Below are positions 1,832-31,541 of a DNA stretch of 32,000 bases, in pieces. Below the pieces are notes generated by a model. That model searched no databases. It was not told the origin of the DNA and worked only from the letters and a program-made list of their open reading frames with translations. Every line of letters starts with the position of its first letter. Position 1 is the first letter of the stretch. A program made the position numbers and the translations under genes. Source of the stretch: Candidatus Saccharimonadota bacterium (GTDB lineage: Bacteria > Patescibacteriota > Gracilibacteria > Absconditabacterales > Absconditicoccaceae); NCBI GenBank assembly GCA_000503875.1, contig CP006913.1:480001-512000 (forward strand). The letters run 5' to 3'.

Positions 1832-2437
1832 ATGAAACACTACGTTGTACGAGAGGGAAAAACCCCTTGAATTTATGATTCACGAGATAATTGTTTACCC
1901 AATGTTTCTTGATTTTCTGGTGCAAAATACAAATCATTTAAGACCAAACAAGAAGCAGAAATAGCATACAAAAAACCGTATACAGAATATTACGAAACCA
2001 AAGAGAAAAAAAACTGGAAAACAGGTGATTTTCCTTTTGAAAAAAATAGTATTGCAGTTGATGCTGCTTGTAGCGGAAACCCTGGTGAAGTTGAATACCA
2101 AGGAGTTGACCTCATCACAGGAAAAACACTTTTTCACAAAAAATATCCTTTGGGAACCAATAATATAGGGGAATTTTTGGCTTTGGTTGAGGGTCTTAAA
2201 TATTTACATAACATTAAATCTGATCAATATCTTTATTCAGACTCCAAACACGCTATCAGTCGAATTTCACAAAAGAAATGCAAAACAAAATTAGAGAAAC
2301 TCCCATGAACAGAGAGGATTTTTGTGGCAGTACAAGAAGCAGAGGAGCGACTCCGTCAAACTAATCCCTCCACAAAAATCCTCAAACGACATACCGATGA
2401 ACGAGGTGAAATTCCCGCTGATTTCTGAAGAAAATAA
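1832..2437 (+). CDS. RNase H1-type hybrid-binding domain fused to an RNase H-like domain (viroplasmin/RNaseH family), 201 aa
   Basis: After recoding, the N-terminus reads YVVWEGKTPGIYDSWDNC...GFSGAKYKSFKTKQEAE (HBD/Cauli_VI-like). The core has AVDAACSGNPG and NNIGEFLALVEGL. The C-terminus reads ILKWHTDEWGEIPADFGRK. It contains 4 in-frame TGA and 5 CGA codons. Confidence 0.85.
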
Positions 2438-2518
2438 AAATAAATTATTAAAATAATAAATATCATTGATTTTATTGATAAAATATATATAATAATAAAA
2501 ACAACTAAAATAAAAGAA

Positions 2519-2647
2519 ATGAACGAAAAAATTAGATTAATTCCTGAACTTTCAATAGAAATTCCTTTAGGAATGAGCGACGAAGAAGCAATTGGAAGAA
2601 CTGTATGTAGTCCTGGAGGACTTGTAAGGTTTTATGATCCTTTTTAA
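2519..2647 (+). CDS. Small stand-alone ORF, 42 aa (MNEKIRLIPELSIEIPLGMSDEEAIGRTVCSPGGLVRFYDPF)
   Basis: ATG 2519 to TAA 2645-2647. It sits behind an AT-rich promoter-like stretch and ahead of a strong terminator. No homology recognised. Confidence 0.3.
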   Translation: MNEKIRLIPELSIEIPLGMSDEEAIGRTVCSPGGLVRFYDPF

Positions 2648-2666
2648 CAAGGTATCAAATTTAATT

Positions 2667-2695
2667 AACGGGAAGAATACTTTCCCGTTTTTTTT
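2667..2695 (+). terminator. Rho-independent terminator
   Basis: AACGGGAA (2667-2674) pairs with TTCCCGTT (2682-2689), followed by a T-run. Confidence 0.8.
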
Positions 2696-2727
2696 GTAAG
2701 AAAAAAATCCCTAGCAATCTCACAACA

Positions 2728-2775
2728 AATCCTTATATACAGATCAATCAAAGTTGATAAGGATTTTTCTTTTTC
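2728..2775 (+). terminator. Second terminator-like compound hairpin
   Basis: AATCCTTAT (2728-2736) pairs with ATAAGGATT (2757-2765) around an inner ATCAA/TTGAT stem. TTTTTCTTTTT follows. Confidence 0.45.
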
Positions 2776-2908
2776 TCACAAAACGGAGAACACATGCCTT
2801 GTCTGGCTTTGACTCGCGTTTTCTATATTTTCTCTCGAAATAGGAAGTCTTTAATTTTTTTTTCGTGGTATAAAAAGTAGAAACCATTTTTATAATGTAT
2901 TTTTTCGT

Positions 2909-4669
2909 ATGACTGAAATTACTTTCAAAGACTTAGGGCTGTCTTCAAGAGCTCTAGAATGATTAGAAAAAAAATGATTTAAAATTCCTTCTCCTATCCA
3001 AGCCGAGGTTATTCCTTTGTTGATTGCCAACAAAAAGAATATTATAGGACAAGCTGCTACAGGAACAGGTAAAACAGCTGCTTTTTGATTACCTTTAATT
3101 GAAAATCTTAAGCACGAAAATCACATTCAAGCACTTATTTTGGTACCAACAAGAGAATTAGCCGTACAAGTTGCTGAAGAAATAAATTCATTACAGTATC
3201 CAAAGAACCTAAGTATTGTTGCTATTTACGGAGGACAATCTTATGAAATTCAAAATAGAGCTCTCAAAAAGGGAATAGATATCGTAGTAGGTACACCAGG
3301 AAGAGTTATGGATCATCTCAATAGAAGAACATTAAAAATAGAAGAGATCAAATATTTCATTCTTGATGAAGCGGATGAAATGCTCAATATGGGATTTATT
3401 GACGATATTGAAACAATTTTCAAACAAACAAATCCAGATAAAAGAGTATTGTTGTTTTCTGCAACTATGCCAAGAGAAATTCTTTCTGTTGCAAAAAAAT
3501 ACATGGGAGAATATGATCTTGTAGCCATCAAAAAAAATGAAAACATAACTGCCCTTACCGAACAATTCTATATTCAAATCAGTGAAAGAGATAAGTTAGA
3601 AGCACTATGTAGAATTATGGATAAAGAAGATGATTTTTATGGAATAGTGTTTTGTAAAACAAAATTGGACGTAGACCATGTTTTTGCTAGACTTCATGAA
3701 AAAGGATACAGTACCCAAGCACTTCATGGTGATGTACAACAAAAGCAAAGAGAAAATATCCTTAAATTATTTAAAACTAAAAAAACCAAAATTCTGGTAG
3801 CAACCGACGTTGCGGCTAGAGGAATCGACGTAAACGATATTTCTCACGTTATCAATTTTGGATTACCACAAGATCCAGAAAGTTATGTGCATAGAATTGG
3901 AAGAACAGGAAGAGCGGGAAAGACAGGAACTGCAATTACTTTCGTAACGCCTAGCGAATATAGAAAATTCGTATTTTTCCAAAAAGCGACAAATAATACC
4001 GTAAAAAAGATAGAAATCCCTGCAATAGCCCACGTTATTGAAACAAAAAAGAAGAAATTAAAAGCAAATATAACAGAAATGTTGGAAAAAGGGGCTCATG
4101 AAAAATATCTAACTATAGCTCAAGAGCTTTTACAAGAAAGAGAAGCTGATCATGTGCTTGCTGCATTATTGAGAATAGCTTATTCAAACGAATTTAACGA
4201 AGAACATTATACTACTATAGAAAAAACTTCTTCATCAGTAAATACTCCTGGAGAAGGAAAAGCAAGAATATTTATCGCTTTAGGAAAAACAGCTGGATAT
4301 TATCCAAAAACTATGGTAGATTTTATTACCGAAGAAACAGGTGTCCCTTCAAGAGAAATCGATGACGTAAGAGTTTTAGAAGATTTTTCATTTATCACCG
4401 TACCTGAATATCAATCTGAAGTAGTAATTAAAACGCTAAAAGGAACAGCAAGCAGAGCCAAAGACGATAAAGGTAGCTGAAGTGGAGATAGATGAGGAAG
4501 AGGATGATTTAGAGGTTGAAGCAGAGGAGGAGATAGATGAGGAGACAGAGGATGATTTAGAGGTTGAAGCAGAGGAGGAGATAGATGATGATTTAGAGGT
4601 TGAAGTAGATGAGGAGATAAAAGACCAGAAAGAAGTTGAAGAACATTTGAAAAAGGACCAAGAAAATAA
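2909..4669 (+). CDS. DEAD-box ATP-dependent RNA helicase (CshA/DeaD-like) with DbpA-type RNA-binding domain and C-terminal RGG tail, 586 aa
   Basis: Motifs found: [19 protein letters not shown] (the G of FGLP is TGA 3086-3088), [23 protein letters not shown]. The track ORF 3140..4480 is the central fragment. The frame runs through 12 further TGAs to TAA 4667-4669. Confidence 0.95.
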
Positions 4670-4815
4670 AAATCATATAAATAATAAATTAAATTATAAG
4701 CGCTAAGAGCTAAATTTTCTCTTGAAAGGAAAAGCTAAATAATTACATTTCATTGAGTCTATGACATTTTTAACGGAACGCCTATACTATAGGCTCTAGT
4801 TTAAGTATATTATTA

Positions 4816-5517
4816 ATGCATTATCCAAAACATGTAGCTGTTATTCCTGATGGGAACAGAACTCGAGCCAAAGAGAACAATGTAAGTATTCCTGAAGCAT
4901 ATTGGGTATCTTACCAAAAAGGAGTTGATATGTTAGAATATACATTTACAAACACTGATGTTAGTGTTTTTACTCTACGAGGATTAAGTACAGAAAACAC
5001 AGCAAAAAGACCACAAGAAGAATATGATTTCCTTATGAATATGTATAAACAAGTAGATAGTAAATTAGATGAAATCTTAGAAAAAAATCAGATTAATTTT
5101 ATGCGAATAGGAAATCCAGCATGAGTTACTGACGGATTCAAGAATTATCTCAATGAAAAAAAAACAAGATTTAGCTATCCAACAAATAAACGATTTGTAT
5201 TTGCTATAAATTACGGGTGAAGAGATGAGATAACAAGAGGAATTCAAAAATTAGCTCAACAAGGTATGGATTTGAGTAATGTTACCGAAGAAGATATTAC
5301 TGCTGCACTAGATTTGGGGCATATACCTCCTATTGAACTAGTAATTAGAACAAAATGAGATCAAGCTCAAAGAACATCTGGATTTATGTCTTGGTGGATT
5401 GGATATGCAGAATTATATTTTACTGCAAAAAGATGTCCAGAATTAGATATTCCAACATTTAAAGAAGCTCTTGCTTGGTTTGATACTATGGCAGAAAAAC
5501 GTAATTTCGGAAAATAA
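4816..5517 (+). CDS. uppS: Undecaprenyl-diphosphate synthase (cis-prenyltransferase), 233 aa
   Basis: HVAVIPDGNRT[CGA]AK matches the DGNxRWA motif. Also LSTEN, AINYGGRDEI (G is TGA 5218-5220) and RTSGFMSWWIGYAELYF. Confidence 0.9.
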
Positions 5518-5544
5518 TCTTTTATTCTATTATTCTACACGCTC

Positions 5545-6687
5545 ATGAAAATCAGTATCGAGACTGCAAAATTAATTGATGTAATAGATATTTCTAGTAG
5601 ATTCGTTGCCAAAAATGCAACATTACCTATCCTACAAAATATATATCTCAAAGCATCTATTGATAATATCATTATCAGAGCTACTGATATGGAAAAATAT
5701 GTAGAAATAGAACTTCCTTGTAAAGTAAGTCTTGAAGGAGCAGTAACCGTAAATGCAAGAACATTTTTAGATATTATAAAAAGCATTGAAGACCAACATA
5801 TCGAGATCAGTGCTGATCAAAAAACACAAGTAGTTACCATAAAAGGAGCAAAAGATACATTTGATATTAATTGAATTTCTGCTAGCGAATATGTAGCATT
5901 ACCTGAAGTTCCAAGAGAACATACAGTATCTTTAGATACACAAACTTTTGCTCAAGGTGTAGAAAAAGTAGAATATGCAGTAACAGAAAAGAATTTTAGT
6001 CCAGTATTAACCTGAGTATTGATCAAATCAAAAAAAGAAGATGATGGTTCTAAATTAATTTTTGTTGGTACTGATTCATTTAGATTGTCTGAATACAAAA
6101 CCAAAAATACTATTGAAAATGAATTTTCTCTTATCGTTCCAAAATTATCTATCAACGATATACAAAGAATCACAGAATACGGTATCAGTAAAGAATGTGA
6201 TACAATGAAAATATTTTATTCTGAAAATCTAATAGCATTTGAATTTACTATCAACGATATCAAAATTATCGCAACTTCATTACTTATTCAAGGTAATTTT
6301 CCAGAATATGATAGAGAAGAAATTATGCCAAAACAATTTAACACAAAGATTTTGGTAGATAAAGCTATTTGTGAAAAAGCTATCAAAAAAATTGGAATTT
6401 TGACAAAAGATATCAACAATTTTATCCAAATAGAAAGTAACAAAGATAGCATTATTATTTCTTCTGGTAAAACAGATAAAGGAGCTGGAAATACAAGCAT
6501 ACCTGCAATTATAGAAGGAGAAGCTGTTTCTTTCGGTATCAATGGAAGATATATTACTGATTTCATCAGAATCATGAAAGAAGATGAACTACTTTTCCAA
6601 ATCGTTGACGGACAAAAACCATTGGTAATAGGTGAAAAGAGCGAAAAAAATTACAAATATGTTATAAGACCTCTCATCAATAACTAA
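5545..6687 (+). CDS. dnaN: DNA polymerase III beta sliding clamp, 380 aa
   Basis: The two track fragments (5545..5874 and 6019..6687) are in the same frame, joined across TGAs. Typical clamp N-terminus (LPILQNIYLKA...IRATDME) and middle (VGTDSFRLSEY). Confidence 0.9.
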
Positions 6688-6708
6688 TTTTATTTTTTGA
6701 AAGCTTAT

Positions 6709-7326
6709 ATGAAAAAAAAATGATTCACTTTGCTAGAACTTATTATGGTAATAGGAATCATTTTGGTACTTATAGTAAGCTTTAGAAATATTTTCGAAAA
6801 TAATAATAAAGATTTTTTATATGCAGAAACATGTATAAATAAAGTTCATGGAGATATGAATAATTTTATCTATTCTGCAATGACAAGTAGAGGATTATAT
6901 ATTACAACAGGCACAATATTTCCTTTACAATATACTATTTCCATTTTACCTGACAAAGAAATTCACCTACGATATAAAGATCAAAATAATAATACATGAA
7001 CATATATAAGACATGATCTTTCTTCAACAGGAACATTGAGCCAATCATACTGTAGAACAAATAATTATACCACAAAACTTAGTTGAAGTGCTTTTAATAT
7101 AACGATAAATAAAGCATCTCTGCAAGATCAGACACTACCTACATTTACCATAAATGATGGTCAAGAAATATTCACAAAAACTACAGAAATGTATCTTTGT
7201 TATACAGGAAATCTTTGCAAAGAGATAGCTAATTTTATAACCGATATTAGAACACAAACTATCAAAAAAAAGAAATGTATTCTGATAAATAAAGAATGAG
7301 CAAATTGTTTACAACGAGATCAATAA
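6709..7326 (+). CDS. Type IV pilin / pseudopilin-like protein with prepilin N-terminal cleavage-methylation motif, 205 aa
   Basis: The N-terminus MKKKGFTLLELIMVIGIILVL is the class III signal (G|FTLLE). The cleavage-site Gly is TGA 6721-6723. The C-terminal part has Cys pairs. Confidence 0.8.
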
Positions 7327-7329
7327 GAC

Positions 7330-8154
7330 ATGAAACAATCAGACTTATTGTTATATGAAATTATGAATTATCCTATTCCTAAGCATTGGGAATATTTTAG
7401 TACAGAAAAAAAACAAGATTTTAAAAGCGATACAGATCAAAAATTTTCTCGAGATCATGAAAATCCTTTATTGGAAGAATATCGTATCCATATCAAAAAA
7501 CATCAAAAGATTTTTCAGTCACTGCCTTGGATAAAAAGCATCTATCTATGTAACTCAATTAGTTTCAATTCACTTCATCCGTGATCAGACATAGATCTAT
7601 TTATTATAACTCAAAAAAAATGTTTACGACGTGCAAGATTAGCTAGTGCCATAATATTTTTTGTATTAGGACTCAAAAGAAGTAAAGGGAATACCAATAA
7701 AAAATATTGCTTAAGTTTTTATATAACTGAAGAAGCACAAAATTTATATACAATAAGCTTGGAAAACACAGATATTTATCTTGCTTATCGGTTAGCTCAT
7801 CTTGTACCTATTTATCAAGATACTATTGAGAAAAAAACTATCTATGAACAAAATCAACGATTGTTTTCATTATTACCAAATCTTCCAAAAGATCATCATA
7901 GTATAAATTTAGGCCTACCTATTTATCATGGGAATACAAAAATAAAAACAATAATAGAAAAATATATAGGGTGAGTGATTTGACATATTGTAGAATATAT
8001 GATAAAAACATTACGAGTACCAATACTTATATATAAGATCAAAAAACTAAAAGAAATCTGAAAAGATATAATTTTTAGCAATACTATGTTAAAATTCTAT
8101 CACGATAAGAGAAAAAAAATTTCTTTACTCTATAGATCAAGATTTACTAAGTAA
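7330..8154 (+). CDS. Nucleotidyltransferase-fold protein of unknown function, 274 aa
   Basis: Track fragments 7330..7584 and 7759..7974 share a frame. The GSDIDLFII motif (G is TGA) is typical of Pol-beta-type NTases. Ends at TAA 8152-8154. Confidence 0.6.
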
Positions 8155-8222
8155 GACCTAGCTAAATCTACTGATAACTAAAAGTTATATACCACAAAAA
8201 CAATAGATAACCTTTGTATATC

Positions 8223-8251
8223 ACAATTCTACAAAATAGAATTGTTTTTTC
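8223..8251 (+). terminator. Rho-independent terminator
   Basis: ACAATTCT (8223-8230) pairs with AGAATTGT (8238-8245), followed by a T-run. Confidence 0.75.
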
Positions 8252-8370
8252 TTTTTACATTAATACACCTGAAAACGAAACAATTTTTCTACCTACAAAA
8301 AGCAGATTGTGAGTAGAGCGCGTGTACACGTTATATATTTAATTTTATTTTTTAAGAACCTGATAAAGAT

Positions 8371-9546
8371 ATGAGAAACATCAAAGCTGTGTTTGATATC
8401 GGGAACGATAGCATAAAAGCAATTGTTATTGGAAACGATGAAGGAAAAGAAATCGTTCTTGCAAAACAAATAGAACAAACACAAGGACTTCGCAAAGGTA
8501 AGATCCTAGACTCAGAATGATTTACAGCCACTATAAACAAAATATTAGAAAATTTTGTAAAAAAATTATGAGGCGATTTTATTGAAGAACTTTTTGTTAG
8601 CATCTCTCACCCTGAACTTATTATCAATAGAGTAGTAGAACAAAAAAGAGTTATGAGAGATGAAATTAGCGAAGAAGATGTAGATCACTTATCAAGAGTT
8701 ATCACAGAAATTTCTCACAAAAGTAACTACGAAACTATAAAGATCGTTCCTGTTCATCGAATCATAGATGAAACAAAAAGAGAAAAAGATCCTATAGGAA
8801 TGAAAGGTAAAAAATTAGAACTTGTTGCAGATGTATTCATGATTCCCAAAAATCTTTACAATGGACTTATAGATTCATTCGAAAGAATTGGTGTAAAAAT
8901 AACAGATATTATTCCAAATATTATCGCTGCCAGCGAAATAGCATTAGATTATGATCATAAAGATTTGGGAACAATTCTTATTGATATAGGAAAAAACCAA
9001 ACAAGTTATGTAATCTACGAAGATGGTTACGCATTGGGATATGGAGTAGTGCCTATGGGAGGTGAAGATGTTACCAAAGACATCTCTATAGGAATGCAAA
9101 TAGATATAAAAGAAGCTGAAAACATTAAGAAAACACATGGCTCTGCAATCGTATTCAAAGACAATATTAAAGATGATAGCGGCCTTGATATCTTATTCTT
9201 ATCAGATGTAATTAACGCTAGATATGAGGAAATATTCAATAAAATAAATAAGCATCTCCACCAATTAGACAAAGAAGGAAGATTAGCTGGATGAGTAATT
9301 CTTATTTGAGGAGGTTCAAAAGTAGGTAACATCGATATTCTAGCCAAAGATATCTTTAAGTTAGCAACCTTCTATGGTAAAGATAATGTGCTTAACCTTT
9401 GAGATATATCTACTAATCAATTATTTACAAATGTATTATGAGCTTATCTACGATCAAATAAATATACTGAATGAAGAAAAATGTCATTTAAGTTAAACTT
9501 TGATTTCATAGGAAGTATTACAAAGTTCTTCAAAGAATTATTCTAG
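8371..9546 (+). CDS. ftsA: Cell division protein FtsA, 391 aa
   Basis: Actin-fold motifs: AVFDIGNDSIKA, ILIDIGKNQTSY, VPMGGEDVTKDI, GGVILIGGGSKV. C-terminal amphipathic helix GSITKFFKELF. Lies immediately upstream of ftsZ. Confidence 0.9.
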
Positions 9547-9681
9547 AATAAGACGCCGAAACTTCCCAAGAAGTTTAACGTCGTTTCTATCCTTTGCGTA
9601 GTCAAAGGATAAATAATAAAAATAGCCAAACAAAAAATTTCATAGCAATTATACATTTTTAATTATTAATTATGTAAGAGA

Positions 9682-10830
9682 ATGGTTATACAAGAAATCA
9701 ATCCAGAATTTATTCCAGGAGCTAAAATTAAAATTTTAGGAGTAGGTGGATGTGGAAATAAAGCATTAGATAGAATGATAACTGAAGGTTTGGAATGAGT
9801 TGGTTTTGTAGCTATCAATACTGATGCTCAAGATTTAGCAAGAAGTCTTGCTGATACAAAAGTAAATATTGGACTTAACCTTACAAAAGGTCTTTGAGCA
9901 GGAGCAAATCCTGAAATAGGAAGAAAATCTGCTGAAGAAAGTGAAATGGAGGTTAAATCAGTACTTCAAGATACCGATATGGTATTTATTACTTGTGGAC
10001 TTTGAGGAGGAACAGGAACTGGAGCTGCTCCAGTAATTGCTACTATAGCAAAAAATATGGGAATTCTTACTGTAGGAATCGTAACCAAACCATTTAGTTT
10101 TGAAGGAAGAAAAAGAGAAGCAAACGCTGAAGAAGGACTAAAAAAGATGAAAGAATCAGTTGATACACTTATCGTTATTCCAAACGACAAAATTTTCACG
10201 GTTATCGATAAAAAAACAACATTCAAACAAGCTTTCACTATGATTGATAAAATCCTATTCTTAGGAGTTCAAGGAATATCTGATCTTATTGTAAAACCAG
10301 GAGATATTAATATCGATTTTGCAGATATCAAAGCAGTTATGACAGATTCTGGAAATGCATTATTGGGAATCGGTTACGGAGCTGGAGAAAAGAGAGCAGT
10401 AGATGCCGCAAGAAAAGCTATCGAAAATCCATTATTAGAAACAAATCTTGATGGAGCAAAAAAAATAATTTTTGCTGTTTCTGGAGGACATGACCTTACT
10501 CCTACGGAAGTAAGAGAAGCTGCAGCTGTTGTTGAAGAAATCATTGATCCTGAAGCTAATTTCTTCTGGGGAATGACTTTCGATGAAAGTATGGAAGATG
10601 AAGTAAAAGTAACTATTATAGCTACAGGTTTCGAAGAACAAAGTAGAGATCAAATACTCAAAACCCCAAAAAGAGATATGCTTGGAAGATCTATCAAAAG
10701 AGAATCAGAGAATTTTATTACAAGATTGACTAAACAAGAAGTAAACACAAACAATGAAGAAACTATTGATTTAGATGCAGAAGAAGATATAGAAACTCCA
10801 GCATTTATTAGAAGATCTTTAAATAAATAA
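9682..10830 (+). CDS. ftsZ: Cell division GTPase FtsZ, 382 aa
   Basis: Motifs: [31 protein letters not shown] (G is TGA 9895-9897) and the tubulin signature [10 protein letters not shown] (first G is TGA 10003-10005). C-terminal peptide [10 protein letters not shown]. Confidence 0.97.
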
Positions 10831-10852
10831 ATATAATTTTCATATAAGAAAA

Positions 10853-10882
10853 GTCTGGCTAAAAAAAAGAGTCAGATTTTTT
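10853..10882 (+). terminator. Terminator-like hairpin after ftsZ
   Basis: Imperfect stem TCTGGCT/AGTCAGA with an A-rich loop, then T6 (10877-10882). Confidence 0.5.
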
Positions 10883-10946
10883 CTTTTGTTTTTTCTTTCC
10901 ATTTTACTATATATCAGACGTTGTATTTTATATTATAGATCATAGT

Positions 10947-11987
10947 ATGTATTTCGCCATTTTAGGAAAACACCCTCAAATAAGCTTAGCTGAGCTCCAA
11001 AAAATCAAACCAACATTCTATCCTAGTAGCAAAAAGGGGATAGTAATTTTTGAAACAGAAATCCCAGAATGATTGAAGCTACTTTGATGATCAATCAAAA
11101 CAGGGAAAGTGGTAGCAGAAAAAGACCTTCAAACACTTCTCCAAGAGGTGAAAATTATAGGAATTCAAGAAGAAGCTATAGGAAAACATTTCAAAAGAAC
11201 TATTGGTATCAGAAGATTTAAAACAGTAAAAATAAATCACACGGACAAAGAGATCAAAGAAAAAGGGAAAGAAATCATTAATCTCGATAACGGAAAATAT
11301 GGAATAGTAGAGCAGTATCAAAATATTCCCCTTTATGAAAGTATTGATTTTGAAAAACCAGGACGCAGCATGAGCATGGGAATGATGCCAGCAAAGCTTA
11401 CGCATATTCTGATTAATATTTGAATACAAGCAACAACAATAATTCAAAATGAGCCAATAACTATCTACGATCCTTTCTGTGGATCAGGAACAACAAATTT
11501 CCTTGCAAATATATTGGGCTATAACACGGTTGGTTCCGATATAAATATTACTTATGCACAAAAGAATCTCCCTTGGCGACAAGCAACCCCTTTTTACAAT
11601 CAAGACACGTCTATAGACTTTTTCACTCATGATATTACCAAACCTATTCCAAACAACATCTCTAATTGATCTATTATTATCACTGAAGGACGACTTGGCC
11701 CTATTATCACCAAAAGAAGTAATCCCGATGACGTAAGAAAGGCTCAACAACAAATTCAAAAACTCTACACTGATTTTTTTACAAACATTATAAAATCTGA
11801 TCTTTTCCCAACGATTATATGTACTATTCCACGATATATTGGATATGACAATACACACGAACAATTATTACAAACAACAATAAATAGTCTTGGATACGAT
11901 CGAAAAAGTATTAGCGAAATTTACCAGAGAGAAGATCAACAAGTGGGCAGAAAAATTTGTATAGTAACAAAAAAAGGGAAGAAGTAA
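10947..11987 (+). CDS. SAM-dependent RNA methyltransferase-like protein (UPF0020/Trm11-type), 346 aa
   Basis: MPAKLTHILINIG...IYDPFCGSGTTNFLANILGYNTVGSDIN is a SAM-binding motif I. The catalytic-loop variant is IIITEG[CGA]LGP. The frame joins track ORF 11109..11423 to both flanks through TGAs. Confidence 0.65.
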
Positions 11988-12021
11988 AAACCTCCGCCCT
12001 TTTAAATAGATAATATAATTT

Positions 12022-12342: not shown

Positions 12343-12491
12343 AATAGTTTTTTTTAAGTTTTATTTTTAGGTTAACGGGGTATATTATACATATATAAAG
12401 AATAAAATCAATATAAAAATAGATATAATAAATTGTAGTTGCAATTAGATGAGATTTATCTAAAGTAACTCAGCAAAAAAAAACTAAAAAA

Positions 12492-19671: not shown

Positions 19672-19697
19672 AGAGATGATTTATATACACAAGAAAA

Positions 19698-21644: not shown

Positions 21645-22326
21645 CATTAACATCAAGAAAATCTGTATGATTATGATGATAAACGTGCTGATTAACAGGT
21701 TGTTTTTTTTCTGGAATTATTACTTTTTGCTGGTCTGAAACAGTCATTCATTCAGATAACTTTGACAGATATTGATCTAAATCAGTAATAGCTATCTCTT
21801 GTATTTTTTTCTTAAGATGAATTATTAGAAGATCTTTTTCTCTAACTATTTTATCTTTTTCCATAATAAGAAAAAACATTTTATTTACGACTTCTCTTAA
21901 AATTTTTTGATTTTTTTCTTCCAAAGATCAAATAACACTATCTTTTTGTTGTAATAAAAAATCTTTTTCTTTAATAAGATTTAATATTTTACCATCTAAA
22001 AGCTTTTCCAATGATTCTTCAAAATCAAAAGAAAAATCATTAGTTTCCTTATTTCAAGAAGTATTTCTATCATATAAATCAAAACAAACATCTTTCATTA
22101 AACAATCCATTTCTTCTTTAAATTTAGAAACTTCTCTAATTACTTCCCTAGGAATAGCTTCTTTTTGTGAATTCTTTACAATATCTTGTATTTTTTGGTC
22201 TTTAATATAAGCCAATTCCTGTCTAAATTTAAACCATTGAAAAAATCTTATGATAAGTCCTATCAAAAGAAAAAAAAGTAAAATTCATGAGAAAATAAGC
22301 CAAAAATCAAACCAATCTATTTTCAT
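21628..22326 (-). CDS. N-terminally membrane-anchored coiled-coil protein, 232 aa
   Basis: MKIDWFDFWLIFSGILLFFLLIGLIIRFF is a TM segment, followed by a heptad-rich Lys/Glu region. I checked triplet by triplet and found no in-frame TAA/TAG on the minus strand. The 3' end overlaps the OLD gene by 17 nt. Confidence 0.6.
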
Positions 22327-22393
22327 AAAAAAAGCTTAAAAGATAAACTCCTTTAAGCTGTTATATATATTAGTAACAAAAAGTCAACTACTT

Positions 22394-22957
22394 CTATTTA
22401 AAAAACAAAAATCAAGCAATAATAAGAAATACTAATGTTAAACCTATTAAAATCAGATTTATAAGTTTTTCATTTTTAATAGAAGATTTTAATTGAGAAA
22501 TTTTTTCTTCAAGCTTTTGTTTTTCTATAATAGCTTCTTGTTTTTCTCTTGTATAATCAGGCAAAGCTACCATATTTTGAATTTTAGTTTCTAATTCTCC
22601 TACTCTTTGCTGTAAAACGAAGATAATTTTATTCTTTTCTTCAAGCATTTTATCTTTTTCTCTAAAAATCAAGAAAAATTTTTCTAATTTTTGTTCTATC
22701 ATGGCTTCCAATTGTGGATTTGATTTTGCTAGTCCTGTTGATGATGAAGATTGACTAATAACTTCAGTTTCTACTTCTTGATGTAAAGCAGAAAAATCCT
22801 TTTTAAGATCATATACCTCCCCTTTTTCCAACAATACTTTGTTAGCAACTTTTTTATATGAAAGTTTTCCACTTCTGATATATCTATCTATTGTTCTTGT
22901 AGAAATACCAAGTAATTGCGCCGCAGCTTCTCTAGTAATAGTATACACTTTTGCCAT
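22394..22957 (-). CDS. Excisionase/MerR-type HTH protein with coiled coil and C-terminal membrane anchor, 187 aa
   Basis: The N-terminus YTITREAAAQLLGISTRTIDRYIRSGKLSYKKV is an HTH_17-like motif. It has a central coiled coil, and the C-terminus LINLILIGLTLVFLIIAGFLFFK is hydrophobic. Confidence 0.7.
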
Positions 22958-22978
22958 TTATAAATACAAAAAATAAAA

Positions 22979-23227
22979 TTATAAATTAAATTTTTGCGGT
23001 TCTTGTTTTTTTATATCATCAATAAGTGATTTAACATACAAAACAATCAAACAGCCTTCTAAAACACCAAGAAAAAGCATTATAGGATAAATTCCTACGA
23101 AGGTCCATTCACTATTAAAAAACGCAATAGCACCTGTTTGAACTCAGATGTTTTGGAAATAAGGAATCCAAAGAAGAATAAAGATTATAACAATAAACCA
23201 TAAATACGTTACATTTCCTTTTTTCAT
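22979..23227 (-). CDS. Small two-TM membrane protein (LapA/DUF1049-like), 82 aa
   Basis: MKKGNVTYLWFIVIIFILLWIPYF...FVGIYPIMLFLGVLEGCLIVLYV, then a charged tail. Its start lies 5 nt after the stop of the upstream gene. Confidence 0.5.
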
Positions 23228-23231
23228 TTTT

Positions 23232-23612
23232 TTATATTTTTTTAACTAAAAAATAAACAAAACTCAATAAACATGAAAGAACAAAAACCTGAACTACATT
23301 TCACAAGATAATATATATTCAAAGATCAAGATAGTTAACAAATTGTTCGAATACATATAATAGAACAAAATTTAGAATCAAAGAAAATATACCAAATGTT
23401 AATGCAGAAATAGGTAAAGTAAGTAGTCCAAGAATTCATTTAAGAACAATATTAATAAGCCAAGAAATTATTCCCAAAAAGAGATAAATAATAATATCAT
23501 TAGCGTATTCTGATTGCAAAGAAAACCCTAGTCATGGAAAGTAATGAGCCATAACATAAAGTAATCCAGATCCAAAGACAACATACAAAACAAAATGTTT
23601 GATATATTTCAT
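23232..23612 (-). CDS. Phage-holin-superfamily-IV / YvlD(DUF360)-like membrane protein, 126 aa
   Basis: Four hydrophobic segments with the family-typical ILGLLTLPISALTFGIFSLILNFVLLYV core. Confidence 0.6.
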
Positions 23613-23734
23613 TCTAAAAATGAACCGAATAAAAGAATAGATATTTGTCCACTATTTTCAAGACATTTTGTCAACTTTTGTCATCTCAGATAAACAGAAA
23701 GACAAATACAAAGAGATAAGCAACAATATAGACA

Positions 23735-24139
23735 TTAATCCCCAATAATATCATCAAAAACATCTTCTTTTCCATCCTCAAGATACTTATGAATAGCATT
23801 TCTAGAAGCCAATAAAGCAATTACTGCCGCCCTCTTTCTTCTTGGCGAAACTTCAAATCACAAAGAAAGTATTTTAGAATAATCCCGAGTAAGAACTTCA
23901 TGAATATCAATTCAGACAATTATCTCTGACAATATACTTGCAGCAGCCGTTGTTATAGTTGAACAATTACCATCAAAGCTATATGCATGAACAATATTAT
24001 TCTCTATATGAAGATAAACAGTGATATCATCTCAACAAATAAAATTTCCTTCATGTTGTTTGATAGTATAATCTTTCATAGCAAAATTACAGAGTGGGTT
24101 TTTCGCATATTCCTGGATCATTACACTCAATTCTTCCAT
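23735..24139 (-). CDS. NifU/IscU/SufU-like Fe-S cluster scaffold, 134 aa
   Basis: EYAKNPLCNF...NFICGDDITVYLHIENNIVHAYSFDGNCSTITTAAASILSEIIVG fits the xCGD...F.G.GC...A.AS scaffold pattern. Confidence 0.75.
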
Positions 24140-24155
24140 AAAAAAGTATTAAAAA

Positions 24156-24437
24156 TTAAACGTAATCAAGTCTAATAAATAGATGATTAACCAGTTGTTT
24201 CAATAAGAAAATAAGTTTATTACTAAGCTCTATAAATCATTTTACACAGACAATTTGAAATTCTTGAATTTGATGAGCTATTTGTTGAACAGACAAGAAA
24301 AACTTATTAGAATTGATTTCTAGAACAACATCATAAAAAGAATCCTCACAACAAGAGAAAGTTGCTTTGATATTCTTGAGATAAACTGTTCTTTGTTGGA
24401 GAAAATCTTGATCCATAAGAGTTTTTTGAATAATCAT
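24156..24437 (-). CDS. Hypothetical protein, 93 aa, likely co-transcribed with the scaffold gene
   Basis: Track ORF 24237..24437 extends through a TGA to TAA (plus-strand 24156-24158). Its stop lies 16 nt upstream of the scaffold-gene start. Confidence 0.45.
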
Positions 24438-24592
24438 TCAGTCAACAAAAAAATAAAGGTGAATTTTTTGTATCGTTTTACCCAAAAATTACAACAGAAA
24501 ATTTATTAGAATTTTAAGAGAAAAATCGTCTTGATTTTTATGGAAATATCATTATTTTTTTACAAAGGATTTTATCGGTAATAAAGCGTTAT

Positions 24593-25360
24593 ATGAAAAA
24601 TCAATATTTCGACATTGTTGTTAAAAAAATATGAAAATATAAAAACAAATTATTAGAAATAGAAAAAATCAAAGATATTATCAAAAATATACTAGATTCA
24701 GAGTATTCTGAACAAAAAACCTACAAGATGATCTACTATCTTAAAAATAGGGGCTATATAGAGAGTCTTAAAAAAGATATTTTTTTTATAAAAAGTCCAG
24801 AAAAGACTTATCAAGAGCAAGAACTTGTCGGAAAATTTTATCGAGAAATACTTAAGAAGCATTGTAATGAATATCTTCAAGGAAAACGATATATATGAGG
24901 TTTAAAAGCACTAGAACTAAATATTTCATCTTTTGAAATACCAGAAGAAATCCTCATAGTAAACATGAAAAAACAAGCAACTGAAGTAATTATAGGACAA
25001 AAAAAAGGGTTGTTTAAAACCTATGGATCAAATCAGAAGAATCTTTTTCCTTTATTTTACAAATACACAAAGAAAATACCTATAAATAACCAGTTATATC
25101 CGGTAGCAAATTTAGAATTATCAATAATAGAGACACTTTACAACCAATCCATCATCAACAAAGGATATGGAGAAGAATTAATCAAAAAAATCATCAGAAA
25201 ATTAGGGAAATCAATTAATATAAAAGTATTAGAAGAGTTTTTAAAGCATAATAAACACCATAGCGCTATTAATAAACTTTACAAAGTAAGCCAGACAATC
25301 AATCCAACACTTGCAGATGAGCTCAAAACAATTATTAAAAAATATAGTTATTTCATATAA
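24593..25360 (+). CDS. Winged-helix protein resembling AbiEi-type (type IV TA antitoxin-like) regulators, 255 aa
   Basis: N-terminal wHTH-like KTYKMIYYLKNRGYIESLKKDIFF, then YIGGLKALELNISSFEIPEEILIV, which resembles the AbiEi pattern. The assignment is weak and no AbiEii partner is present. Confidence 0.35.
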
Positions 25361-26202
25361 GAGGATTTTTTTAGAGAACGATACATAAGAAAAATTCCTA
25401 TAATAAAGAAAAGGACAAAAAACCGCTGACTCTTAGTTAAAAAAGCTACATATTCTGATTGACTATCCATTCTTAGATATTCTAAGAAGAATCTTACGAA
25501 TGAGTACCAAACAAGAAAAAAAGATGACAGAAAGCCAATAGTTCGTCTGTTTTTTTTCAAAGAAACAAATAAAACAATACTAGAAAATAGTAAAACAACA
25601 AACCCCTCAAAAAAACTAGCCAAAAAATTAGTATTTATTCTCAAAAATCAATCAACACGGTCATAAATATAAAATAGATGAATATACGAAAAAAACGATA
25701 CGATATGAGATCAAAGAGATGGAAAAACATCAGTAACCAAACGTCCATATAATTCCTGATTTAAAAAATTACCAATTCTTCAAAACATTATTCCAAATGA
25801 AGTAGGCAAAATAAGTAAATCTGCCAAAGTCCAAAAATCACGAAAAGAAAATTTATATTTACGAATAATAAATAATAAAGCGGTTATAACTCATAAAATA
25901 CCACCTATAAATGACATTCACCCCTCCCAAATAGCAAAAACGCGTAAAGGATGTTCTAAGTAATAACTAAAATCATAAATAAAGATATGTCCTAATCTTC
26001 ATCAAACAAGAAGTCATAAGACAGTATACAAAACAATATCCTCTGGAGATTTTTGTAATAAACTATAAAAACCTGGAGCATATTTTTCAAAAAAAGAATA
26101 CCTTTTAATATACATAAAAAACAGATATCCAGCAAGAAAAGCAAGAAAATAGAAAATACCATACCAATAAATCGAAATTCAAAACAAAGAAAAAGCTACC
26201 AT
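25348..26202 (-). CDS. lgt: Prolipoprotein diacylglyceryl transferase, 284 aa
   Basis: GGRLGHIFIY, IWEGGMSFIGGILG, FGRIGNFLNQELYG, VRFFLEYLR. Several of the Gly residues are TGA-encoded. Confidence 0.9.
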
Positions 26203-26266
26203 AAGAAAAAGGATATGAAATAAGACATATCCCTTTTATAGATTTATTTAAAAACTTCAACAAAGA

Positions 26267-26989
26267 TTATAAATCATATTTTTCTAACATATGTTTAATC
26301 AAAATTAAACGTTCCAAAACATCATTTTTCATAAGATCGTAATTTTCTACAATATCGTCGTTATGGCTTGATAAGTAATCATATTTAATTTTTAGTATAG
26401 AACTATAAGCAGCAATTTTATCTGCTAAAACTTTTTTTGCATTATAATCTATTTTTGCATCAGAAGCACATTTTGCATATTCTTTTGAATGATCAATAGC
26501 TTCTTGTAAAAGTATTTGCTGATAAGGAGATTGTACAGCATCAAGATACTGCTTATCTGAAATTATCTTTTGAGATAAACAATGTTTCATAGAATAATCC
26601 AATAAAGACATTTCTTCTTTTATAGTAGATAATGCCATATCTGATTCTAATAAATAAGTATCCAAACGAGAAACATAATCATCCATAACTGTTTTTTTAT
26701 CTATTTCAAATTCTAAAAGTTCCAAAATATTATAAGTAGTAATATCCTTTAATGAAAGAATTAAACGAGCATATTCATATGAAGACGATAAATCAGATGT
26801 AGATCAATGAGCCAAAATCATATGCATACGATACAAATTAAATCATAAAGCTAGCGGCGAAGAAAAAGCCTCTTGTTCTTCTTGAGCAATAGGATCGTAA
26901 ATAACTTCTTGAACTCTAGAAATGTTCATTTGGGCAAATAAACTCAAAGGAATACTAATTAAAACAAATCAAAGAAGATATTTTTTCAT
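26267..26989 (-). CDS. Secreted hypothetical protein, 240 aa, directly downstream of pilC
   Basis: Signal peptide MKKYLLGFVLISIPLSLFAQ. Frame verified triplet by triplet from 26989 to track ORF 26267..26725. Separated from pilC by a 21-nt gap. Confidence 0.6.
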
Positions 26990-27010
26990 AATAATATTAT
27001 TAGAAATAAA

Positions 27011-28090
27011 TTATTGCATTACATTAACCATATCTGCCATAGGAATAAATATAGATCCTACAACTATTCAGATAATAACAGCAATAAATGCCATCAAAAA
27101 CGGTTCCAATAAAGCAAGGAGCATATCTATTTTATTCTGAAGCAATTCACGATAAAATGTGGATATTCTTTTTAGTACATCTGCCATATTTCATGTATTT
27201 TCTCAAACACTAATAATCTGTATCAAAATAGGATCGAAAAGTGTTGATCATTCCATAGATTCAGCCATTCAAAATCCAGATTTCATATCACTTTGAATTT
27301 CCAATACCTTCTTTTTATAATGAAAATTAGAAAAAACATTAGCTATAAGCTTTAAAGAGACAACAGGACTTATTCCCCCACTATATAATTGTCAAAGTAA
27401 TTTGGAATATCTATACATATGAAATGTTTTAACAACATCAGAAACAACAGGTACGCTAATCAATATTTTATCTATGATAATTTTAAACGGTAAGAAAAAT
27501 TTATATAATAACGTATATGAAGAATATATTCATCCTACTGTTAAAAGAATTACATACCAATAATTTTTAATAAAATCTGAAGTATCTAACATAAAAACAG
27601 TTATTGAAGGCAACGAATCCTGACTAGGAAACATTCCAACTATAGTAGGGATAACAAAAAGAAGGAGGATAACGACAGCTATAATAGAGAACGAAAGCAA
27701 AACCATAGGATAAGTACTTGCTTTTTTGATTTTTTGATTAATTTTTTGTTCATTTTCCAAATCTTCTGATATTTCCTCAAGTACATCTGGTAAATTTCCA
27801 ATAGCTTCAGCCGATGTAATAAGTGATATTTCTTCTTCTTTAAATATATACATATGATTACGTAATGTAGAAGAAAAATTAACTCCTTGATTAAGTTGTT
27901 CTATCATATCATCAATAATATACAGTAGTCCAGCTTGTTTTTCTGTCTTTTTTATAGAAATCAAAGAATCTCTAATTCCCAGACCTGCTTTTTGTGATAA
28001 TGCAAGCAATCTAAAAAAATTCGTTTTATTTTTTAAACTTGGTGCATTAAATCTAATATATAATCATTGTAATAATTCTCAAATAGACAT
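27011..28090 (-). CDS. pilC: Type II secretion system F-family / type IV pilus platform protein, 359 aa
   Basis: Two GspF repeats (SLITSAEAIGNLPDVLEEIS...; LIQIISVGENTGNMADVLKRIS...) and three TM segments. Track ORF 27530..28009 is the internal fragment. Confidence 0.85.
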
Positions 28091-28117
28091 AGATACAATA
28101 GGTAATTAAAATTAAAG

Positions 28118-29434
28118 CTATTCTGCTTTTGTTTTTACATTTTCATATACTTCTTGAAGCGTAATATGTCATTGAATTGCTTTAAAAACACCATCTCTTT
28201 CAAGATTAATCATTCCATGTTGAAGTGCATATGCTTCTACTTCAAAAGCAGATTTACCTGCCAAAAGAAGTGTTTTGAGATCATCTGTATAATCCATCAT
28301 TTCAAAAAGTCAGATTCTTCATTTACATCAAGATCAATGACAAACAGGACATACTAATCATGTTTCTGGATCTTTTCCAGTTCCCGTCATAATCATTCCT
28401 TCGTTAATAAAAGAATTTCGTTGTTCTTGTGTTATATTTCTACTAATGATTTCTTTTTTCAAAAGCTCTGGAATAATATTTTTAAAACTAGATACTGCAA
28501 AACGATGTTGAGGTGTTCCTTTTACAGAAGTTGCTTGTTTACAATGATAACATACTTTTCTTGCCAATCTTTCTGCCATAACAAGATTAAAAGTACCAGC
28601 CAACATATACGGCTTTGCACCAAGATTAAATACCCTAGTAATAGTTTCAGCTGATGAATTTGTATGTATTGTAGAAAATACTAAATGTCAGGTCATAGCA
28701 GCTTCCATAGCCATATCCAATGTTTCTCTATCACGGATTTCTCACACCATAATAATATCTGGATCTTGTCTCAGCGCTCATCTCAAACCATTTGCAAAAG
28801 TAAATCAAATATCAGTTCTAACCTGAGCTTGATTTAAACCAGGCATTTTATTTTCGACAGGATCTTCATAGGTGATAATATTTACTTCTGGTTTATTAAT
28901 ATAATCAAGAGCAGCATACAATGTTGTTGTTTTTCCAGATCCCGTAGGACCAGTCATCAAAATAATTCCATTAGGATAATCCAAATGTTTATTGATAATA
29001 TCCTTATTAGAACCATCAATTCCAAGTTCATGCAAAGGAGGAATTTTTTTTGATTTATCTACAATACGCATTACCAATTTTTCTCACCAAACCGTAGGTA
29101 ACGTATTTGCACGAAGATCTATTTCTTTATTTGTTTGTGTTATACTAGAAACTCTAGCATCTTGTGGAAGCCTTTTTTCATCAGGCCTCATTTGACCAGA
29201 CTCAATTTTGAATTTAGAAATAATACTTTCATGAAGATTTCTAGGAAATTGCATCAATTCTTCTAAAATACCATCAATTCTAATTCTAATTCTAGAATAG
29301 TTTTCCAAAGGTTCTATGTGAATATCAGATGCTCACTCCTCAACCGCGACGGTCAACAAGTTATCAAAAATTTTAACAACATCTGAGTCTACAATAGCTT
29401 GCGTTAGTCTTTGTCTATAATCAACAGTAACCAT
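28118..29434 (-). CDS. pilB: Type IV pilus / T2SS assembly ATPase (GspE/PilB family, short form), 438 aa
   Basis: ASDIHIEP, Walker A MTGPTGSGKTTTLYA, Asp box, Walker B DPDIIMVGEIRD, His box TGHLVFSTIHTN. Tetracysteine motif CYHC...CPVCHGSGCKGRIG. Assembled from four track fragments. Confidence 0.92.
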
Positions 29435-29619
29435 ATACGAACATACGTAAAATAATAAAATACATACAATAGATATTCATCTAAGTATATTCAGAAAGCT
29501 TTTAAAAAACAAAAAATCTGACTATCAATTACTATATACACTTGCTTTTTGGGGTAAAAGTGATTAAATAAGGTTTTATATACATTTCAAAACAATTATT
29601 TTATCCACAACGTCGAAAA

Positions 29620-30003
29620 ATGAATAGAGAACGAACGCTTATTTTCTGAATTATTATTGGACTTCTCATAGGATATCTCATAGCAAGAATATATTTTTTT
29701 ATAAAAATAAAACACCAACGCCAAGATGCAGTTACAAGATCTCGCAATGTTGTTCTTGGTAATGTAAACGAAAAAATAGCTCCCCTTCTCCCAGGTTTTC
29801 CTTATCATTACAAGGATTTAATGTTTTTGGGGAAATGAATAGATTATATTGTTTTTGACTGATTAAGTCATTGAAATTTAACAAAAATAGTTTTCCTTGA
29901 AATTAAAACTAATTCCTCTACCCTCAACAGAAATGAAACAATGATAAAACAATGTATCGAACAAAAAAAGGTTGAATATCAAATTTATAGGAAGATAGTT
30001 TAA
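29620..30003 (+). CDS. Membrane-anchored Holliday-junction-resolvase-like endonuclease-fold protein (PF10107-like), 127 aa
   Basis: N-terminal TM segment, then KDLMFLGKGIDYIVFDG...IVFLEIKTNSSTLNRNE, which fits a D...E-x-K nuclease-fold pattern. The last 15 nt overlap the tRNA. Confidence 0.55.
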
Positions 30004-30059
30004 TGGTAAAATACAAGACTCCGAATCCTGTGTTGTAGGTTCGATTCCTACTCTTCCTG
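29989..30059 (+). tRNA. tRNA with anticodon CCG on a tRNA-Trp-like body (candidate CGG-to-Trp decoder)
   Basis: Hand-folded cloverleaf. Acceptor AGGAAGA/TCTTCCT; D stem GTTT/AAAT with loop AATGGTA. Anticodon stem CAAGA/TCCTG (one A-C mismatch) with loop CTCCGAA (CCG at 30021-30023). Variable region TGTT; T arm GTAGG-TTCGATT-CCTAC; discriminator G; no encoded CCA. Confidence 0.9.
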
Positions 30060-30159
30060 AATAGCAAATAAATATTGACATTTTAAATGTAAAATAAAAA
30101 GAGATATAGATAAAATTCTATATATAAATACAATTTTTTACCAAAAAATATGTCTACAT

Positions 30160-30843
30160 ATGTCCAAATTAAAACAAATATTTACATATATAAAGAGACT
30201 TTTCCCCGATCCAAAGACTGAATTAATATATAATATGCCATTTCAATTAGTAGTAGCTGTAATATTATCAGCTCAGACAACTGATATACAAGTAAACAAA
30301 GCAACTTCAAATTTATTCAAAAATATATATACTCCCCAAAATATAATACAAATATGACAATCAAAATTAATAAAGTCAATATCGTCAATTAATTACTATA
30401 AGACCAAATGAAAAAATATATTTCTCTTATCTAAGCTTATTGTAGACAGTAAAAAAGTAAAAGATTTATGAATAGAAAAATGGAATACCTACGAGGATAA
30501 AAATAATATATATTTTATACCCAACACAATAGAGGGACTTAAAAAATTGCCTTGAATTTGAGAAAAAACAGCAAAAGTAGTAGCTCATGTATTATTTTGA
30601 GCACCAGTTATTGCAGTAGATACCCATGTTCATAGAGTATGTAATAGATTATGAATAGTTTCAACAAAAACTCCTGAACAAACTTCAAAATTACTTGAAA
30701 ATATTATTCCAAAACAATACAAATCAATTGCTCATCATAGTATAATCCTCTTTTGAAGATATTATTGCACAGCCAAAAAACCCAAATGTGAAACATGCGA
30801 ATTACAAAGCATCTGTAAACGATATCAATCAATTAAAAAGTAA
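30160..30843 (+). CDS. nth: Endonuclease III (DNA glycosylase/AP lyase), 227 aa
   Basis: LVVAVILSAQTTD; HhH motif LPGIGEKTAKVV...DTHVHRV. The Fe-S cluster loop is CTAKKPKCETCELQSIC. Confidence 0.9.
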
Positions 30844-30926
30844 GTCATTGCACTTGTGTCCCATAGAACAAGCATTAAAGTAACAATTCATATATTATAA
30901 AACTTTTTATCAATTATCATATATTT

Positions 30927-31541
30927 ATGAATCTTATTGAACCAAAACGATGACTTGAATTAGTTCTATCTCTTCATCAAGCAATGCTTTCATCGCAACT
31001 ACGAACAGTTCTTACTCCAACACTAGCTGATGTTTTCGTATTCAGTTACCCTATCTATCTAATAGTTCTTTATAGTATAGGACGAATTAAAAAACAGATC
31101 AGTTATAAAGTTGCATCGCTCTGGATTTTTGCCAATGTGGTTGTTACCACTCTGGTAAACATAGGAATCCAAGCACTTGTCCAAAAATCCAGGCCAAATA
31201 TTGTCCTCTGATTAATTGATGAGAAAGTAGAAACTGTTCTTCATAAATTTTTACCTACAAGTAGTTTTCCTTCTGATCATGCTGCAGTTTCTATGAGTAT
31301 AGCAGTAGCAACATTCCTTCGATGAATACAAAAAAAAGACAGGAAATATATCTATTTTTCAATTATCTTATTCGTTTTTAGTTGTATTATGTGTGTATCT
31401 AGAATAGCTACCGCTGTACATCGACCAACAGATATTTTAGGTGGGATTTTGGTAGGGGCCATCATTCCTCTACTTCTTAGCACAAAAAAAATCTCCTCAT
31501 TTGGAGAGAAGATTTCTTTATGGATAGGAAAGAAAATTTAA
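30927..31541 (+). CDS. PAP2-family phosphatase (undecaprenyl-diphosphatase/BcrC-like), 204 aa
   Basis: The three PAP2 motifs are present: KSRP, PSDH and SRIATAVH[CGA]PTD. Multiple TM segments. Confidence 0.8.

Follow-up and report, generated by a model that had tools for sequence, protein, structure and literature searches.

Locus, gene content and codon inventory

The stretch of DNA analysed (the window) comprised 32 kb with 29% GC from a low-GC genome of an uncultivated SR1/Absconditabacterales bacterium (GTDB genus UBA5124), and the subject of the analysis was the meaning of its in-frame CGA and CGG codons, which the original prediction had read as tryptophan instead of arginine, CGG only as probable. 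Among its genes were those for an RNase H, UppS, FtsA, SatP, a Lit/DUF1461 protein, an HD-CYTH protein, a ferric-reductase-like membrane protein, Lgt, PilB and a PAP2 phosphatase, along with a tRNA with the anticodon CCG. The region was found to be common to SR1 bacterium RAAC1_SR1_1 and the assembly GCA_003543185.1, and one window protein was also found to be encoded on DPJE01000003.1 (GCA_003543185.1), as well as on a contig from a sediment metagenome in ENA. The relatives used for comparison were 80 genomes or loci found via PilB (64-89% identical), all of them SR1/Absconditabacterales. The database labels differed, with GCA_003543185.1 given as 'Candidatus Gracilibacteria bacterium' and many of the relatives as 'Peribacteria'; all of these are SR1/Absconditabacterales.

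The coding sequence of the window was found to be fragmented when TGA was taken as a stop, whereas 41 long open reading frames (ORFs) with 167 in-frame TGA codons were found when it was taken as a sense codon, and the ORF coverage rose from 17.8 kb to 43.8 kb. The residue at the TGA columns was Gly in 56 of 88 outgroup cells of the database-match tally, and in the relatives' loci TGA was found opposite TGA or GGN codons; the reading of UGA as glycine in the window was confirmed by these alignments. Over the region ~3040-23390 of the window, the NCBI gene calls of GCA_003543185.1 (L002) were broken and the ENA calls of the ENA contig (L001) were intact, the NCBI calls being fragmented because TGA was taken as a stop.

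Codons were counted in 36 confident genes comprising 9273 codons, which were found to contain 65 CGA, 5 CGG and 43 TGG codons in frame, followed by 219 AGA, 23 CGT, 15 AGG and 6 CGC codons for arginine. Taken together, the 65 CGA and 5 CGG codons were distributed over 1136..31424 on both strands. Per 10,000 codons, the window contained 70 CGA, 5.4 CGG and 46 TGG, and the 354,000 codons of 76 relatives' loci contained 40.8, 8.7 and 60.4, respectively; CGA and CGG together made up 5-79% of the Trp codons across the relatives' pilB neighbourhoods (L003-L082). The Trp content of the window was 1.22% with CGA and CGG counted as Trp, CGA then being 58% of the Trp codons, and 0.46% from TGG alone. 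All 13 codons named in the original prediction were found to be CGA or CGG (TCG or CCG on the plus strand for the minus-strand genes) and in frame, within ORFs bounded by TAA or TAG. The four in-frame CGG codons that it listed were present, and a fifth, at 23885-23887 on the minus strand, had been missed. The conserved arginines that it had ascribed to AGA or CGT were verified as such. CGT at conserved sites alternated with AGA and CGC, so it was taken as an ordinary Arg codon, though many CGT sites vary.

CGA and CGG sites in homologues and relatives

The window proteins were aligned to solved structures with CGA and CGG masked as X, as a guard against search bias. The 17 CGA sites aligned in this way were found to contain Trp at eight sites and Tyr or Phe at four, followed by five sites on variable columns, and a conserved Arg was found at none of the 17. 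The tally of database matches (blastp) contained Trp in 127 of 146 cells at CGA and Arg in none, and at AGA it contained Arg in 62 of 91 cells. A concatenated query of four window proteins returned 35 long fusion proteins only.

The RNase H gene (1832-2437, plus strand) was found to contain CGA at 1850, 1883, 2261, 2348, 2387 and 2402, all of them Trp positions. The codons at 2261, 2348, 2387 and 2402 were aligned with Trp in all four cases in the Bacillus halodurans RNase H structures, and those of the HBD domain at 1850 and 1883 with Trp in four of five matches. The segment ILKRHTDERGEIPADFGRK is the peptide that would be expected from this gene if CGA were Arg. The UppS gene (4816-5517, plus strand) contained CGA at 4864 (DGNRT-W-AK), 4978, 5104 and 5191. 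The column of 4864 was Trp in five of five solved structures and in eight of eight database matches, followed by that of 4978, where the structures had Tyr but eight of eight database matches had Trp, and by 5104 and 5191, which were on variable columns. The UppS protein under standard translation was found to be identical to AHB41268.1 (RAAC1_SR1_1, 1.18-Mb genome), which has Arg at all four CGA sites, so that the predicted mistranslation in public annotation held for the one protein on which it was tried. The Trp version of UppS was absent from a collection of 15 billion proteins.

The SatP gene contained CGA codons at 13676 and 13823 (plus strand), which corresponded to Tyr and Trp, respectively, in both SatP structures. 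The CGA of the Lit/DUF1461 gene at 14261-14263 (minus strand; GN-W-SFD) was aligned with Trp in the Lit structure 7b0o, and that of the CYTH domain in the HD-CYTH gene at 16386-16388 (plus strand) with Trp in 2fbl and 3typ, in the motif PPPWFGEEVT. The PAP2 phosphatase gene (30948..31424, plus strand) contained CGA at 30948, 31002, 31083, 31320 and 31422. In 25 relatives four of these five sites were mostly CGA, TGG or CGG, and 31083 was mostly ATG or ATA; the site 31422 was Phe in the structures and CGA, CGG or TGG in all 25 relatives. The CGA at 8758 in FtsA was on a Tyr/Phe column in the solved structures. The alignments to solved structures were uninformative for PilB 28418 (an insertion), Lgt, SufU and FtsA 9451. 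The cited CGA codons had been claimed to fall on Trp or an aromatic residue and never on Arg, and this was borne out for UppS, RNase H, SatP, CYTH and Lit with Trp, for SatP 13676 with Tyr and for PAP2 with Phe.

The gene of the ferric-reductase-like membrane protein (18752-19630, plus strand) was found to contain nine CGA codons, starting at 18899, 18911, 18920, 19220, 19355, 19460, 19487, 19535 and 19550, most of which were CGA or TGG in the relatives. The site 19355, listed in the original prediction as that of a YedZ-like protein, was occupied by Trp in 84 and by Arg in 16 of a diverse set of 100 representatives; the query for this search was a TGA-free stretch translated with Arg at CGA, which gives a slight bias against Trp. 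The Arg residues at 19355 were found largely among the closest, same-clade matches (7 of the 8 best), and several of these matches were also found to contain Arg at other Trp columns. Translation of CGA as Arg in the relatives' own genes would be expected to leave such a pattern.

All window genes were compared with the 80 loci by tblastn with code 25 and the alignments were mapped back to codons. The 472 codons aligned with window CGA contained CGA (185), TGG (135), CGG (41), Tyr or Phe codons (44) and Lys codons (2), and the 61 codons aligned with window CGG contained CGA (34), TGG (21) and CGG (6) and no others. Taken together, 422 of 533 aligned codons were CGA, TGG or CGG and none was an Arg codon. 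The 2914 codons aligned with window AGA were Arg codons in 2157 cases (74%), followed by Lys in 478, and CGA, CGG or TGG in 2. Among the sites with at least four relatives, any Arg codon was found at none of the 30 CGA/CGG sites vs 122 of the 135 AGA/AGG/CGT/CGC sites; chance is excluded as an explanation by this difference, and the three codons CGA, CGG and TGG behave as a single synonymous class on Trp or aromatic columns, separate from the Arg class and without overlap with it. The public translations of two protein families contained nothing but Arg or Trp at the CGA/CGG columns, and Arg or Lys with no Trp at the true Arg columns.

The 61 codons aligned with CGG came from four of the five sites. 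The CGG at 7789-7791 (plus strand), in a clade-restricted nucleotidyltransferase-like gene, was aligned with TGG and CGG in two relatives' loci, and its column in 120 public homologues contained Arg in 72, Trp in 48 and nothing else. The CGG at 21570-21572 (plus strand), in an OLD-family ATPase gene, was aligned in 12 relatives with CGA (7), TGG (4) and CGG (1). The CGG at 23885-23887 (minus strand), in a SufU/NifU-like gene, was aligned in 28 relatives with CGA (18), TGG (7) and CGG (3), followed by that at 25423-25425 (minus strand), in lgt, which was aligned in 19 relatives with TGG (9), CGA (9) and CGG (1). The codon of the fifth site, at 12187-12189 (minus strand) in an ORF of 106 amino acids, was verified, and no homologue of this ORF was found in the fetched relatives' loci. 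In the ENA annotation, the OLD-family ATPase/TOPRIM gene (19698-21644) is assigned the Pfam domains AAA_15, AAA_21 and OLD-like_TOPRIM; it is likely a defence or nuclease gene, and conservation was seen at just 12 of the 80 loci.

The tRNA with anticodon CCG

A tRNA gene with the anticodon CCG, which reads CGG by Watson-Crick pairing, was found at 29989..30059 on the plus strand (Rfam tRNA model, 67.3 bits). Its acceptor end contained A1:U72, G2:C71, G3:C70 and G73, which are features of bacterial tRNA-Trp, followed by the presence of U20 instead of the arginine element A20, the main determinant of arginyl-tRNA synthetase (ArgRS). The identity elements of such a tRNA had been named in the original prediction as informative, and A1:U72, G73 and U20, with A20 absent, agreed with it. 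The ARAGORN call, tRNA-Arg(ccg), spans 29988-30060 and is shifted by one base (T...A, not A1...G73), as are its calls for most of the tRNA(CCG) orthologues. The register A1...G73 was fixed because L018 and L029 encode CCA right after G73. ARAGORN names a tRNA-Arg from the anticodon alone, and the Trp-type identity would be hidden in automated annotation.

The tRNA(CCG) was found in 25 of the 80 loci, and in these, like in the window, it lies directly upstream of pilB; the window copy was aligned with those of 22 relatives, 23 copies in total. The stem cells of these copies were paired in 97.5% of cases, with compensatory change at 11 pairs, followed by the presence of invariant A1:U72, G2:C71, G3:C70, G73 and U33-CCG-A37. 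Position 20 was occupied by U, once by G and once by C, and never by A. The Trp assignment of such tRNAs has been based on G73 and the lack of A20, supported by A/G1:U72 (PMC8629427), and G73, no A20 and A1:U72 were present in the window tRNA as well as in the 23-copy alignment.

The E. coli tRNA-Trp (trpT) was found to share A1:U72, G2:C71, G3:C70, G73, U20 and a variable loop of four bases with the window tRNA, and the GGUA D-loop and the acceptor end were common to the window tRNA, trpT and the SR1 tRNA-Trp(CCA). The E. coli argX(CCG) and the SR1 tRNA-Arg(UCU) contained G1:C72 and GGAUA with A20. The identity of the window tRNA was 65% to trpT and 48% to the E. coli tRNA-Arg(CCG) (argX), and a blastn search of the window tRNA against E. 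coli genomes gave no match. The anticodon of canonical tRNA-Trp is CCA, whereas the window tRNA and its orthologues contain CCG, with G36 in place of A36. The A36 nucleotide was reportedly described by Himeno in 1991 as a determinant of tryptophanyl-tRNA synthetase (TrpRS) in E. coli. Judged by these nucleotides, the tRNA(CCG) is Trp-like at its acceptor end and is not a member of canonical tRNA-Trp.

The anticodon stem of the window tRNA(CCG) contained an A29.C41 mismatch, at which the closest relatives contained G:C. The orthologue of the sister species in UBA5124 (L005, 5399-5469) contained a one-base deletion disrupting the acceptor stem, and at the loci of the five closest relatives the ORFs contained no CGG; the CGG-reading tRNA may be decaying in the genus UBA5124. 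A U27.U43 mismatch, which leaves an anticodon stem of 4 bp, was found in 5 of the 23 copies (L015, L019, L022, L023 and L024), and all Absconditabacterales tRNA(CCG) of the dataset in a 2026 paper in Nucleic Acids Research are said to have 5-bp stems (PMC13092985).

The published tRNA genes of RAAC1_SR1_1 comprised one with the anticodon UCG, one with GCG, the expected reader of CGU and CGC, and none with ACG (PMC8629427). A pattern scan of metagenomes, in which the pattern itself required a Trp-like 3′ end, returned a Trp-type tRNA(UCG) on the contigs L095 and L117; most of the other hits were either tRNA arrays of phages or ordinary tRNA-Arg(UCG) with A20, and only L095 and L117 were TGA-recoded. 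On L095 (Ga0052835_100036, 22% GC), which is from a different genome than the window, the region 9904-10060 contained two tandem tRNA genes, one for tRNA(UCG) and one for tRNA(CCG), each with A1:U72, G73 and encoded CCA, and this pair speaks for the proposed Trp reading. The D-loop of the L095 tRNA(CCG) was unusual and lacked the GG18-19 motif.

Meaning of CGA and CGG and its alternatives

The code of RAAC1_SR1_1 is very probably NCBI table 25 (UGA as Gly) with both CGA and CGG read as Trp, to which we assign a probability of about 0.92. For CGA this reading is supported by three lines, namely the outgroup homologues, the codon comparison with the 80 relatives and the Trp-type tRNA, and for CGG in RAAC1_SR1_1 it is supported by the four in-frame sites and the tRNA(CCG). 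Arginine would then be left to the four codons AGA, AGG, CGU and CGC. The window tRNA(CCG) would be charged by TrpRS, and a second Trp-type tRNA(UCG), encoded outside the window, would read CGA and, by wobble, CGG.

Several observations weigh against this reading. The present assignment and that of the 2021 paper are both based on sequence, and all the support for CGG comes from within the clade. The two CGG columns that could be aligned to solved structures were unconserved: E. coli Lgt has Ile there, and the SufU/IscU column was ambiguous. Neither the window nor any of the 80 loci contained a tRNA(UCG), the reader of CGA. The whole-molecule identity of the window tRNA to the tRNAs of the clade was 61% for the sole tRNA-Trp(CCA) in the loci and 72% for a tRNA-Gln(CUG). 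Whole-molecule similarity is thus not discriminating, and the tRNA argument rests on the identity positions and not on an origin as a tRNA-Trp duplicate. The tRNA(CCG) keeps C35 and G36, which are also determinants of ArgRS, and its G73 fits Arg too; since C35 and G36 are kept, residual recognition by ArgRS, or some dual charging, may occur. The Codetta call for CGG was '?' in RAAC1_SR1_1, whereas for the sister species, UBA5124 sp002414185, it was 'Arg' (PMC8629427).

The retained C35 and G36 and the two Codetta calls, together with the A.C mismatch of the window tRNA(CCG), the acceptor-stem deletion in L005 and the lack of CGG in ORFs at the loci of the five closest relatives, would also fit an ambiguous or unfinished decoding, in which CGA, CGG or both are part Trp and part Arg, or CGG is near-unassigned and the tRNA(CCG) decaying. 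This was considered unlikely, although it survives better than the other alternatives. The four CGG sites were kept strictly as CGA, TGG or CGG in up to 28 relatives, so CGG would have been read as Trp often enough for selection; A20 was missing in all the aligned copies of the tRNA(CCG), and the three identity pairs and G73 did not vary, in contrast to the remaining acceptor-stem pairs, which covaried.

A retained Arg meaning, with the Trp matches due to chance or to Trp-to-Arg replacements that a reduced, fast-evolving genome had tolerated, was considered highly improbable. The public annotations translate CGA and CGG as Arg, one variable UppS column was Lys in one structure and one EamA loop column was Lys or Arg in homologues only 26% identical. 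Against these stand the relatives' codons, none of the 533 being Arg vs 74% at AGA. Arg would moreover be needed at every one of the invariant Trp positions in RNase H, UppS, SatP, CYTH and Lit, the Trp content would drop to the 0.46% supplied by TGG, and the CGG-reading tRNA would have to serve for Arg without A20. Plain NCBI table 25, with CGA and CGG as Arg, fails on the same codon count and on the outgroup columns, which were Trp. Standard Arg decoding was excluded by the outgroup Trp columns and the codon-level comparison within the clade.

Editing of C to U in the mRNA scarcely deserves any weight. It would turn CGG into UGG and so give Trp without a change of code, but 65 of the 70 codons were CGA, and editing fails for these because CGA would become UGA, which is Gly in RAAC1_SR1_1 and not the conserved Trp; a dedicated, conserved tRNA with the anticodon CCG and Trp features was also present. 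We know of no site-specific C-to-U editing of bacterial mRNA on such a scale. An apparent CGG=Trp in plant mitochondria was later explained by C-to-U RNA editing, and CGG is found on conserved Trp columns there as in the window, whereas the window differs by its CGA codons together with UGA=Gly and by the cognate tRNA(CCG). That CGA means another aromatic residue, as the four sites on Tyr or Phe in solved structures might suggest, is just as improbable, given Trp at eight structure-aligned sites and in 127 of 146 database cells, the alternation of CGA in the relatives with TGG in 29% of cells vs 9% for all Tyr and Phe codons, and the G73 and A1:U72 of the tRNA, which belong to the Trp set (PMC8629427).

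The report of CGA and CGG as Trp in Absconditabacteria was correctly cited in the original prediction (Shulgina and Eddy, eLife 2021, PMC8629427). That study described the same phenomenon in the same clade and genome with the same tRNA rule, and its Fig 4-source data give UGA as Gly, CGA as Trp and CGG as '?' for both GCA_003543185.1 and RAAC1_SR1_1 (GCA_000503875.1, UBA5124 sp000503875). The reassignment was found again by a 2026 preprint and was taken as given in the 2026 paper in Nucleic Acids Research (PMC13092985). The reading of CGA as Trp in RAAC1_SR1_1, and of both codons in the clade, is therefore already known since 2021, and the result from the window is an independent confirmation from a 32-kb sample and not a discovery, because it had been described for this very genome. 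The addition made here is modest: CGG was left as '?' for RAAC1_SR1_1 in 2021, whereas the four sites and the tRNA(CCG) directly support Trp in this genome, in keeping with the 'probably' of the original prediction.

A CGN-box Arg codon captured by a Trp-type tRNA(CCG) at low GC has likewise been described in Anaerococcus and the RFN20 Bacilli (Onthovivens), where only CGG changes, no tRNA(UCG) is present and CGA remains Arg via tRNA(ICG) (PMC8629427; PMC13092985). Unlike these, RAAC1_SR1_1 changes both CGA and CGG and contains no tRNA(ACG) (PMC8629427). NCBI table 25 shares UGA=Gly with the window but keeps CGA and CGG as Arg, which the window does not. As far as we know, no NCBI translation table encodes the added change of CGA and CGG to Trp.

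The history would follow the published codon-capture argument, in which AT pressure (29% GC) would have made CGA and CGG rare, tRNAs reading CGA and CGG with Trp identity would then have captured both codons, and the Trp codons would since have shifted from UGG to CGG to CGA. The published values for RAAC1_SR1_1 are 25 CGA and 56-58 TGG per 10,000 Pfam-aligned columns, and the reassigned codons were described as not yet rebounded, with CGA below 37 per 10,000 Pfam columns (PMC8629427). The frequency of CGA in the window was ~2.7x the published genome-wide value, the latter being measured on Pfam columns. The excess of CGA over TGG is a lead and not a result, because the measures differ and the samples are small. 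It is conceivable, and put forward here only tentatively, that the reassignment is at a late stage and not at the early one of the 2021 account, with CGA overtaking UGG as the main Trp codon and with CGG and the tRNA(CCG) possibly vanishing in UBA5124. A speculative driver would be selection moving Trp off UGG, the neighbour of UGA=Gly, as a U34 tRNA reading UGA as Gly could misread UGG.

Elsewhere in the window, the gene of a DEAD-box helicase (2909-4669) was found to contain 39 AGA and 15 TGA codons and zero TGG, CGA or CGG, followed by the presence of a long Arg/Gly-rich repeat at its C-terminal end (~4480-4669; GDRGGRGGFRGGSRGG...). The regions 2438-2908 (~470 bases) and 18069-18751 (~680 bases) contained short ORFs without start codons and no convincing gene, and no Rfam match at the gathering threshold was found in either.

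Sense-codon reassignments are very rare in free-standing bacterial genomes, and the present one is one of five reported in 2021. The public translations would be wrong at ~0.75% of the residues encoded in the window and at over half of its tryptophans, and in RNase H, UppS and SatP these would be Trp residues that are catalytic or strictly conserved. Such mistranslation would degrade homology searches, structure prediction and the matching of metaproteomic peptides across the SR1 clade.

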